Below are positions 4,650 to 6,774 of a DNA stretch of 64,000 bases, piece by piece. Source of the DNA: Escherichia phage WPEC4; sequence record PV682947.1; one strand, 5' to 3'. Numbering within the stretch: position 1 is the first letter of the stretch; each line of letters starts with the position of its first letter. A program made the translations under genes and the position numbers. A model generated the notes under the pieces. The model was not told where the DNA came from, made no database searches, and saw only the letters and a program-made list of their open reading frames with translations.

Positions 4650-5212
4650 TGGGTTGTTTTAGTTTCTTGTGCAAAGAATCGGGCAAAGCTGCCCTTTCTA
4701 CTTCTTTCGACGGATCGCCTTGCTACCTCTTTCTTTTGAAGGACGGTGTTGTTATTGAAGAAATGTATGGCAACTATGATAGCTACGGCTGTGTTTTCTC
4801 TGGGAAGGAGGATGAAAATGGCGTTCGTGAACGATTTGAATGGGCTATGGACTGGAGTAAGGTTTGTGATTTGATGCATTCCTCGAATCCAAGGGACGGT
4901 ATCGCTATGGTGCTGGAAGAGTATTTTACAGGTGAAATTCCTACAGAACAATCTGACGGAGATCCTAATCAAGGTTGGGGTGATGGTGAAGAAGATCCAG
5001 ATTGTTTTTTCAGCACAGAAAAGAATAAGTTTAAACGTGTTGACAACCCTTATCACAAAGTGCATAATACTCTCATTGAAACAGAAGATGACAAGATGGA
5101 AATTGAAGAAGATGATCCTCTTGTAACACTTCCTATAAGTGAGTTACAAAAGATCACTAAAGAAGCTTACGATTTAGGCTTCAAAATTGGTAGAGGAGGT
5201 ATGCGTGTTTAG
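4649..5212 (+). CDS. hypothetical protein (187 aa)
   Basis: ORF track; TAATG overlap coupling. Confidence 0.55.
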   Translation: MGCFSFLCKESGKAALSTSFDGSPCYLFLLKDGVVIEEMYGNYDSYGCVFSGKEDENGVRERFEWAMDWSKVCDLMHSSNPRDGIAMVLEEYFTGEIPTEQSDGDPNQGWGDGEEDPDCFFSTEKNKFKRVDNPYHKVHNTLIETEDDKMEIEEDDPLVTLPISELQKITKEAYDLGFKIGRGGMRV

Positions 5213-5483
5213 ATTCAATATTCAAGAAGAAAAGTGTCAGGATTTACCTATTGCTTTCGAAGACCTTGGCATAGGGGACACATTCATGTATTATGCTGCC
5301 TATGAAGACGCAGGGTTGGATACCTACCGTAACTTGGTGTTCATTAAAAGTTCCCCAAACAGTGCGATCTGTATTAGTGGATCACTATCACAACGAGGCT
5401 ATACTCATTGCATCCCACCAGACACAAATATGGTGGAAGTAGATTTAGAAGTTACCAATATCACACTTAAGAAGGAGAAATAA
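5205..5483 (+). CDS. small protein, paralog A (92 aa), GTG start
   Basis: GTG preceded by GAGGAGG; N-terminus M-F-R-F-N-I-Q-E-E-K parallels paralog B M-L-N-F-E-I-D-E-Q-K; shared DLxxGDTF and C-terminal VxLEVTxITLK motifs. Confidence 0.5.
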   Translation: MFRFNIQEEKCQDLPIAFEDLGIGDTFMYYAAYEDAGLDTYRNLVFIKSSPNSAICISGSLSQRGYTHCIPPDTNMVEVDLEVTNITLKKEK

Positions 5484-5484
5484 T

Positions 5485-6279
5485 ATGTCCGAGAAAATCA
5501 GCCTGAAAAAACGTCAAGAAAACCTTGCTTTCTCTCTGAAAAAGAATAAGAACCTGAACGAAGGTAAGATTGTTCTTCGTGTAGCTTGTGCGCTAGATAT
5601 TTCTGGTAGTATGCATGGTCTATATGCTCGTGGGGTAGTGAGTGATTTTGTAGGTAAACTGCTTCCTTTTGGTATGCTGTTCGATGATAATGAACAGATT
5701 GATATGTGGGCCTTCAATACGAGTTCTCAAGAGCTTACTCCAGCAACAGCAGACGTTTACGATGATTATGTTGGTAAGTGTATGCGTAATGTTCGCATTG
5801 GAGGTGGAACAAATTACGCTCCTGTAATGGCAGATATCTATGATGAGTATTTTGGCACTGTTACCAAATATGTTACCACTAAACAAGTGGTACAAGAGCA
5901 GGCTCCAAAGAAAGGCTTCTTTAATCGTCTGCTTGGTAAAACTGAAACAGTATCTGTAGAGCGTGAAAAGGTTGTAGCTGTATCTGAACCAAGTGCTGAC
6001 GTTACTCCTGGTGTTGTATTCTTCCAGACAGACGGTGAGAATGGTGATCCTAGTGCTGTTCGTCGTCTTATTGAAGAGAATAAGAATAAACCTATTTATT
6101 GGTTCATGGTTGGCGTTGGTAATGAGAAGTTTGGCTTCCTGAAAGAACTGGCAAATGCTTACGATAATGTTGGTTTTATTGGCATTAAAGATTTAGACTT
6201 GACAGATTCAGAGCTTTATGACAAACTCTTATCTGAAGAGTTCGGAGAGTGGGTTGTTAAAGTAGGTGCTAAAAAATGA
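5485..6279 (+). CDS. vWA-domain protein with TerD-like N-terminal ISLKK leader (264 aa)
   Basis: MIDAS-like DISGSM, GGGTNYAP and FFQTDGENGD motifs read in the translation; N-terminal KISLKK as in TerD proteins. Confidence 0.6.
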   Translation: MSEKISLKKRQENLAFSLKKNKNLNEGKIVLRVACALDISGSMHGLYARGVVSDFVGKLLPFGMLFDDNEQIDMWAFNTSSQELTPATADVYDDYVGKCMRNVRIGGGTNYAPVMADIYDEYFGTVTKYVTTKQVVQEQAPKKGFFNRLLGKTETVSVEREKVVAVSEPSADVTPGVVFFQTDGENGDPSAVRRLIEENKNKPIYWFMVGVGNEKFGFLKELANAYDNVGFIGIKDLDLTDSELYDKLLSEEFGEWVVKVGAKK

Positions 6280-6524
6280 TCGACGAGCTTGCCTCTCAAG
6301 TCGTAGAAAATTATTGGCGCGAGAGAGAAGCTTTCATTATGCGCAGTCTCAAAGAATACTTCATTGGGACTGTGCGGATGGAAGATATTGTAAGTAGAGT
6401 AGAGATTCATGTATGGCCCGATTATGAAGAATGGGTTGACAAAGAAAATGAAAATGCTATAATTCTTCGTATAGACAAACCGGAGATAACATTAGGAGGA
6501 AGAAGTGTTAAACTTCGAAATTGA
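6276..6524 (+). CDS. hypothetical protein (82 aa)
   Basis: ORF track; overlapping start. Confidence 0.45.
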   Translation: MIDELASQVVENYWREREAFIMRSLKEYFIGTVRMEDIVSRVEIHVWPDYEEWVDKENENAIILRIDKPEITLGGRSVKLRN

Positions 6525-6774
6525 TGAGCAAAAAGTAAATAAACGATGCCTTACCATTAAAGATTTGGATGTAGGAGATACTTTCGTCTATGAAAATGCA
6601 TTTGACGAAAATGGTTTAGACCTTAGTGAAGTCATTGTTTATTTAAAAGTAGATGATGGGGAAAATGATTATTCTGCTGTAGAACTAAACCATCATGCAC
6701 AATTAGTAACAATCCAAAACACATCTAAGCTTTTGGAAGTAGAATTGACTGTAACTGGTATTACACTTAAATAA
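6505..6774 (+). CDS. small protein, paralog B (89 aa), GTG start
   Basis: GTG preceded by AGGAGGA; paralogous to 5205..5483. Confidence 0.5.
   Translation: MLNFEIDEQKVNKRCLTIKDLDVGDTFVYENAFDENGLDLSEVIVYLKVDDGENDYSAVELNHHAQLVTIQNTSKLLEVELTVTGITLK

Follow-up and report, generated by a model that had tools for sequence, protein, structure and literature searches.

In the genome of Escherichia phage WPEC4 (sequence record PV682947.1), two small open reading frames (ORFs), called here A (5205..5483, plus strand, 92 amino acids) and B (6505..6774, plus strand, 89 amino acids), both starting with GTG, are each located directly 5' of a gene whose product begins with the motif M-x-x-K-I-S-L-K-K, at 5485 and 6790 respectively. 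This arrangement raises the question of whether a two-gene unit was duplicated in tandem, as proposed in an earlier reading of the sequence alone, or whether only the small gene was copied, and of what role its products may have beside genes of the Ter type. Ter genes (tellurite-resistance / phage-inhibition) occur widely, in bacteria, on plasmids and in large phages. The window, i.e. the whole stretch of 64,000 nucleotides (nt) analysed, was identified as DNA of a Phapecoctavirus, a phAPEC8-like coliphage of the Stephanstirmvirinae. The comparisons reported below indicate that A and B are paralogs of ancient divergence within a narrow protein family of about 90 amino acids, PHROG 11278, which is restricted to phages; that this family is apparently a fixed component of the Ter module in Stephanstirmvirinae-like phages; and that the two downstream genes are best regarded as unrelated members of one pathway, only the small gene having been duplicated.

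Paralogy and gene starts of A and B

Comparison by BLASTP of the products of A (5205-5480) and B (6505-6771) revealed 29 identical residues out of 89 (33%) and 52% positives, in a gapless alignment running end to end, with a significant E-value of 7e-16. In tblastn searches, the only match to either gene elsewhere in the window was the other copy (E 5e-12 and 4e-11). Both proteins match PHROG 11278 end to end, A at E 8.4e-47 over residues 1-92 of 92 and B at E 4.5e-44, with residues 1-89 corresponding to profile positions 1-89 of 92, so that their paralogy is already implicit in public clustering. The sequence-only reading had described the two ORFs, with correct coordinates, as clear paralogs, each directly 5' of a gene with the K-I-S-L-K-K start, and on all these points it is borne out.

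Some details of that description need correction. The motifs M-[FL]-x-F-x-I-x-E-x-K and DLxxGDTF and the ITLK end are present in both proteins, while the C-terminal VxLEVTxITLKK is exact in A only, B ending in ...VELTVTGITLK, with a single K. Both genes do start with GTG and have a strong Shine-Dalgarno site ahead of it, but the sequence GGAGGA, reported for the two of them, precedes B only (6495-6500), the corresponding site of A being GAGGAGG at 5193-5199, which reads GGAGGT. Position 5187, given as the beginning of the region, is the mechanical start of the ORF at a TTG codon and finds no support. The GTG starts are preferred because every homolog begins with M-[FLI]-x-F; relatives annotate A and B as hypothetical coding sequences of 279 nt and 270 nt, with the same starts.

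Neither protein matches any Pfam, NCBIfam or PADLOC family at E <= 0.01, the TerD and vWA-TerF domains included; a sub-threshold match of B to DUF5006 reaches 16 bits, against a cut-off of 34.1. A profile search against PDB sequences returned nothing below E 0.19, and PADLOC and NCBIfam gave no match for the neighbours of the small proteins either.

The downstream genes and the K-I-S-L-K-K leader

The gene following A (5485..6279, plus strand) encodes a vWA-TerF-like protein of 264 amino acids with a basic N-terminal leader, MSEKISLKKRQENLAFSLKK. It matches PF10138 at E 8.9e-38 (130.9 bits, against a cut-off of 29.4) and has no TerD match, nor does its 40-residue N-terminus produce one when searched alone. 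The gene following B (6790..7392, plus strand) encodes a TerD-domain protein of 200 amino acids, with N-terminus MTDKISLKKGSSEKISLKK, which matches PF02342 at E 1.5e-28 (100 bits, against a cut-off of 25.3), residues 5-179 covering model positions 3-177. The two large proteins may be aligned only across the N-terminal leader (57 columns, E 3e-4). The gene after A thus appears, from these profile matches, to encode a protein of the Ter system which is no paralog of TerD, and the tandem duplication of a two-gene unit is not sustained.

The leader itself, K- and R-rich in both proteins, consists of the motif [IV]-S/T-L-x-K-K in doubled form, and in TerD it falls inside the Pfam domain model, from model position 3. 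The same feature is found in bacteria: TerF of IncHI2 carries ...ARISLEKK...VSLAKKASVSLTK just ahead of the vWA domain, while the N-termini of the stand-alone vWA protein and of TerD from Caballeronia are MITLEKRAAKVSIVLEKR and MINLSKGGRINLSK, respectively. The presence of the doubled leader in bacterial TerD and TerF-vWA proteins marks it as an old trait of both families, and not as the footprint of a duplication. At the DNA level, the two junctions (5434-5511 and 6734-6816) are about 75% similar over the 3' end of the small gene, the Shine-Dalgarno site, the ATG and the first 9 codons, a similarity which the conserved residues and the Shine-Dalgarno site would be sufficient to produce.

Distribution and gene order of the family

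An exhaustive HMMER profile search of 1.84 billion representative proteins detected only about 15 small relatives, 87-93 amino acids long, all of them from phages, and no fusion of the small family to larger proteins. A word-indexed homolog search had yielded near relatives only (9 proteins), and the exhaustive search reached further. A programmed frameshift fusing A to the vWA gene, across the 1-nt gap between them, was considered and rejected, as there is no evidence of a slippery site and no fused homolog among the 1.8 billion representatives. The family is carried by 126 records of a phage collection, and all those examined belong to the Stephanstirmvirinae, the copy number being two in Phapecoctavirus and one in others, Justusliebigvirus among them.

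Three gene orders were observed. The small gene precedes the vWA gene, in turn followed by TerD, in phi92 (gp174-gp173-gp172) and in Klebsiella phage 05F01; it lies between vWA and TerD, usually with a Hydrolase_2 endolysin gene next, in four or five metagenomic phages, represented by contigs L005, L007 and L009 and the partial contigs L006 and L008; and both positions are occupied, in the order A, vWA, a gene for 81 or 82 amino acids, B, TerD, in the window, in phiWec190/PsgM04F and in contig SRR10902858_632, where PRTase_3, TerC and SprT-like genes are found 5' of TelA. The orthologs of B in phiWec190 (43% identity) and SRR10902858_632 hold the same position. In all 11 distinct lineages examined, the small gene adjoins, directly 5', a vWA-TerF gene, a TerD gene or both. 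As judged from gene order, the small protein would be lineage-specific and yet, inside its lineage, a constant companion of the vWA-TerF/TerD pair.

Other observations concern the surroundings of the pair. In Klebsiella phage KP13-16 (L016), an 87-amino-acid ORF at 2005-2268, three genes 5' of the vWA-TerF gene, displays the pattern F-E-V-G-D-V-F ... L-F-V-K-E ... N-A-V-Y-L; it may be a very remote relative of the small family, its match to the family hidden Markov model (HMM) reaching only E 0.11 in a 10-sequence test. In phi92 (L002), gp171 (6288-6890), a protein of 200 amino acids with no Pfam match, encoded between TerD (gp172) and the endolysin, is related neither to TerD nor to the 82-amino-acid product found in the window. 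A Hydrolase_2 gene follows TerD in nearly every phage examined (L005, L009, L021 and the window), and in L009 a Band_7/SPFH gene (2095-2574) is inserted between the two. This adjacency and the Band_7/SPFH gene give a hint that the Ter module may be tied to the membrane or to lysis.

Duplication history and rates of sequence change

A neighbour-joining tree of the small family, whose deep branching order is unsettled, separates three clades: the A-type proteins, encoded before vWA (bootstrap 88), the B-type proteins, encoded before TerD (65), and the distant proteins of the vWA-small-TerD arrangement (90). Since A and B form separate clades, and since their orthologs in other Phapecoctavirus lineages are only 43-55% identical, the duplication is old, preceding the radiation of Phapecoctavirus, and not a recent tandem event. 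One-copy relatives carry the small gene either before vWA or between vWA and TerD, which indicates that only the small gene was copied. In addition, the two supposed units are separated by the 82-amino-acid gene (6276..6524, plus strand; PHROG 22387, function unassigned), which is unrelated to the small family. B-type and distant proteins have in common both their position and a C-terminus in ...[LV]-K, without the x-E-K tail of the A type. For this reason, a history is favoured in which B is the copy in the ancestral position and A the derived one, B and the 82-amino-acid gene having presumably been lost in phi92-like phages.

Between the window and phiWec190, protein identity is 55% for A, 43% for B, 73% for vWA, 91% for TerD and 90% for TelA. 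Among phages about 97% identical in DNA, A accumulates 9-10 amino acid replacements and about 5% DNA divergence, the highest of the region, the replacements falling mainly in predicted loops and in a low-confidence N-terminal segment. B is 95-99% identical across 64 phage records. The ratio of nonsynonymous to synonymous substitution rates (dN/dS) is 0.05-0.11 for vWA and 0.02 for TerD. The stretch formed by the 82-amino-acid gene and B (6276-6774) has a dS of 0-0.06 versus phAPEC8, tuntematon and Schickermooser, compared with 0.09-0.22 for neighbouring genes; this could be a tract of local recombination or of a sweep, or could reflect constraint at the nucleotide level.

Predicted fold, charge and conserved residues

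An AlphaFold model of A based on a 17-sequence alignment, with a predicted local distance difference test score (pLDDT) of 84.4 and a predicted template modelling score of 0.71, features five short strands and one helix, and for the small proteins the predicted fold is a small beta-barrel of the SH3-like type; with only 6 sequences aligned, the model was not usable (pLDDT 43.7). In the 17-sequence alignment M1, F4, G24, F27, G37 and L38 are invariant. The best-conserved segments are the N-terminal M-F-x-F-x-I and an amphipathic C-terminal V-x-L-x-V-T-x-I-x-L-K. Both lie largely outside the barrel strands assigned by DSSP, the N-terminal one having a pLDDT of 27-50, which would fit strands pairing with something else. 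All 15 members are acidic, with isoelectric points (pI) of 4.3-5.5 (4.5 for A, 4.3 for B) and net charges of -2 to -11, a family-wide property which argues against binding of nucleic acids.

Compared with known SH3-like barrels (uL2 C-domain, DtxR/IdeR C-domain, FeoA, KOW, Tudor and EF-P domain I), sequence identity is 3-20%, i.e. there is no sequence similarity. In addition, the small protein has an extra helix (residues 30-36), its conserved terminal strands are poorly placed in the monomer model, and its acidic character sets it apart from the RNA-binding members of the group. A Foldseek search against viral models retrieved uncharacterised small phage proteins only.

The Ig-like DUF11 and DUF7507 repeats of giant surface proteins match profile positions 12-69, including the hairpin motif [DE]-x-G-[DE]-T-[FLW]-x-Y, with summed E-values down to 4e-28, reached by adding 5-22 repeats. 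Giant proteins with DUF11, He_PIG or ankyrin repeats were rejected as homologs, since no repeat is significant by itself (the best has an i-Evalue of about 1.7e3 at library size, at 15.3 bits) and only the sum over many of them is. By its predicted fold the small protein is a barrel and not an Ig sandwich, and the likeness to DUF11/DUF7507 is treated as motif-level only.

Promoter-like sites and plausible transcription units

Two sigma-70-type promoter-like sites precede the small genes on the plus strand. P1 (5040..5068), TTGACA-17-CATAAT preceded by TG as an extended -10, matches 11 of the 12 consensus positions and is located inside a 187-amino-acid gene, 137 nt 5' of the start of A. Its hexamers are unchanged in phAPEC8, phiWec190 and phi92, a conservation which is partly protein-driven, since the site sits in conserved coding sequence. 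P2 (6436..6463), TTGACA-16-TATAAT with TG, is a perfect consensus (12 of 12 positions), one of only two such matches on the plus strand of the window; it lies inside the 82-amino-acid gene, 41 nt 5' of the start of B. The P2 hexamers are retained in phiWec190 and PsgM04F, though the spacer differs at five positions, and a P2-like site is found between vWA and TerD in phi92, 05F01 and KP13-16. P2 probably drives B and TerD.

A G+C-rich hairpin, GAGGGGGAGAAATCCCCCTC, is found 3' of TerD at 7410..7429. Its strand is unassigned, as the scan called it on the minus strand and the plus-strand T-run is weak; it is a likely end of the B-TerD transcription unit, and a further promoter-like site (7430-7458) stands in front of the endolysin gene. 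With separate promoter-like sites, A with vWA and B with TerD plausibly constitute separate transcription units, and to this extent the two units of the sequence-only reading contain an element of truth.

Genomic surroundings of the cluster

Over bases 4600-7500 the window is identical (100%) to the Escherichia phages WPEC1 and WPEC6, and some 60 other records share about 97% identity with it. The genes from 4649 to 7392 are tightly spaced, with overlaps of stop and start codons or gaps of 1-15 nt. A TelA-like protein, an upstream member of the Ter cluster, is encoded at 2830..3891 on the plus strand (PF05816, E 3.8e-33; PHROG 5890, 'tellurite resistance'), its start being taken from the WPEC1 annotation. 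The 187-amino-acid gene (4649..5212, plus strand; PHROG 14928, no Pfam match, N-terminus MGCFSFLC) overlaps the start of A by 8 nt with its stop and is translationally coupled to it. Its product is 100% conserved among close phapecoctaviruses, with 14-21 synonymous changes and a dN/dS of about 0; it is not an obligatory partner, since the SRR10902858_632 lineage lacks the gene.

The vWA-TerF-like gene starts 1 nt past the stop codon of A. The 82-amino-acid gene overlaps the vWA stop (ATGA) and, by 20 nt, the start of B, and is confined to the Phapecoctavirus-type arrangement. It was ruled out both as a degenerate third paralog of the small family (family HMM, E 0.2) and as a relative of the 187-amino-acid gene (BLASTP E 0.015 over 47 residues). 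The TerD gene starts 15 nt past B, with its own Shine-Dalgarno site, and is followed by the Hydrolase_2 gene (7491-8012), encoding a SleB-type cell-wall hydrolase, the endolysin. An antisense ORF of 186 amino acids on the minus strand (6703-7263), facing the last part of B and the greater part of TerD and unannotated in relatives, is most likely spurious.

Directly 5' of the TelA cluster, an array of 10 transfer RNA (tRNA) genes (Met, Arg, Ser, Asn, Thr, Gly, Gln, Pro, Ile, Met) extends over 274-2199. Where the window has this array, UP17, phi92 and SRR10902858_632 have PRTase_3, TerC, three ORFs and a SprT-like gene; TerC was not detected in the window by tblastn with the C-terminal part of phi92 TerC as query. 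Farther downstream, neighbouring genes for 315 (9959-10906) and 314 (10914-11858) amino acids, preceded by two glycosyltransferase-like genes, resemble tandem paralogs, with the common motifs DYHRIVMPF / DFHRVVLPY and NNxKSNLKILEAGAKGxPxxCS; in the context of this pair, a faint Glyco_trans_1_2 match was seen in the relative L022.

Possible roles of the small proteins

The most economical reading of the conserved synteny is that the small proteins are partners of the Ter proteins, and it is considered moderately probable that A and B belong to the phage TelA/TerF-vWA/TerD module as accessory or adaptor subunits specific to this lineage. Each small protein would be co-produced with the Ter protein encoded next to it and would bind to it, A serving the vWA protein and B the TerD protein; where a phage has only one copy, the partner of its product would be one of the two Ter proteins, or both. 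A possible docking site for the acidic barrel is the doubled, lysine-rich K-I-S-L-K-K leader of the two partners, and such docking would account both for the use of a single family by two otherwise unrelated proteins and for the phages that manage with one copy; the conserved amphipathic C-terminal strand may add onto a beta-sheet of the partner. A more specific proposal is that reading the doubled leader is the dedicated task of the small acidic barrels, which would cap or bridge leaders and so control when and where a phage-built TelA/vWA/TerD assembly forms under the membrane; such leader reading could serve exclusion of superinfecting phages or, given the adjacent endolysin gene, the timing of lysis. 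Taken as a whole, this proposal is decidedly unlikely. Following the literature, the whole module would act at the inner membrane, in stress or ion handling, in superinfection exclusion and possibly in lysis timing. Phage Ter modules with TelA, TerF-vWA and TerD have been described, and a part in superinfection competition has been proposed for them (PMC7824862, PMC8386662); four genes of the tellurite-resistance type are reported in Phapecoctavirus ZCKP1 (PMC6141743).

Several findings weigh against a partner role. No family member was detected in the bacterial TelA-vWA-TerC-TerD hub of a Caballeronia plasmid, nor in the Ter modules of phages CcrPW, phiPsa397 and KP13-16, and the existence of such modules implies that Ter proteins in general need no small protein. 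The small proteins are the fastest-evolving of the cluster in the comparison with phiWec190, and the dN/dS of A among close relatives, 0.5-0.64, could be that of an obligate subunit but equally that of an accessory protein under loose constraint or of one driven by conflict. Foldseek found no match below E 0.28 for the predicted fold in the PDB. Finally, no statistical weight attaches to the likeness of the ITLK end of the small proteins to the ISLKK leader, which amounts to a beta-strand pattern of 4 residues.

Four other explanations were compared with the partner role. The small proteins might antagonise or regulate Ter proteins, or their counterparts in hosts and competitors, as timed inhibitors or as decoys for host Ter or defence proteins. 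Inhibitors from phages are often small, acidic proteins, the family is confined to its lineage, Ter hubs elsewhere doing without it, and the amino acid divergence of the small proteins, the highest of the cluster, would then reflect conflict, A having 9-10 replacements and a dN/dS of 0.5-0.64. The near invariance of B in 64 phapecoctaviruses is however a poor fit to an arms race, the replacements in A fall mostly in loops and in the low-confidence N-terminus, as relaxed constraint predicts, and the fact that the small genes always stand beside the vWA and TerD genes of their own phage points to a partner in cis. Antagonism, which overlaps with the partner role in that Ter proteins are bound in both, is on these grounds placed on the unlikely side. 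That the small genes are filler in the early region of the phage, functionally unconnected with the Ter genes and adjacent to them by descent only, would agree with the lack of defence or family matches and with the origin of most records from one phage subfamily, whose synteny is inherited. It is quite improbable, because the adjacency is kept, in other surroundings, in distant metagenomic phages whose small proteins are 22-31% identical to A, because the small gene has switched sides (before vWA, or between vWA and TerD) and yet remained within the pair, and because both duplicates are kept beside Ter genes in three diverged lineages.

Many barrels of the SH3-like, KOW and uL2 type bind nucleic acids, and each small gene stands just 5' of a gene whose expression its product could control; but all members are acidic (pI 4.3-5.5, charge down to -11), which is unfavourable for binding RNA or DNA, and searches of Pfam, NCBIfam and PDB sequences gave no match; such a role is very improbable. 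The original proposal, by which a small gene and a leader-bearing Ter gene were duplicated together to give two cognate pairs, has on its side the M-x-x-K-I-S-L-K-K gene following each copy, the DNA similarity of about 75% over both junctions and the promoter-like site proper to each pair. It is nonetheless extremely improbable: the downstream genes belong to PF10138 and PF02342 and align over the leader only, bacterial members show the leader to be ancestral in both families, the junction similarity is that expected from conserved amino acids and a Shine-Dalgarno site, and one-copy relatives already pair vWA with TerD, with the small gene in either position.

Relation to known systems and significance

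The Ter stress-response and phage-inhibition system (terZABCDEF, telA) was reportedly outlined by comparative genomics by Anantharaman, Iyer and Aravind in 2012. Measured against the Ter system of Iyer et al. 2021 (PMC7824862), the neighbours of A and B are bona fide TelA, TerF-type vWA and TerD proteins, and relatives of the window also have TerC and a PRTase_3 gene upstream; abbreviated TelA-TerF-TerC-TerD operons have been previously described in phages. The small beta-barrel protein is not among the described Ter components, and is absent from the bacterial and other phage Ter hubs examined. PHROG 11278, which A and B match over their full length, is an entry without a statement of function, fold or context. 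The link of the family to the vWA-TerF/TerD genes and its two positional subtypes were worked out here; no description was found of the strict vWA-TerF/TerD association, the positional subtypes, the predicted fold or the promoter layout of the family. The finding as such is not surprising to a specialist, phage Ter modules being already known and the paralogy being implicit in PHROGs.

A small phage-specific protein, with one copy upstream of each of the vWA-TerF and TerD genes, offers a cheap and testable entry to the interactions of Ter proteins. Should it not bind them, the family would be one more group of small phage ORFans, of value for annotation only. If binding is true, a phage-specific variant of the Ter module would be defined, and the purpose of the conserved ISLKK leader might emerge. 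If, further, the small barrels do read the leader, this would be the first molecular role for an unexplained conserved feature of the Ter proteins, and would provide a biochemical handle on the Ter mechanism.

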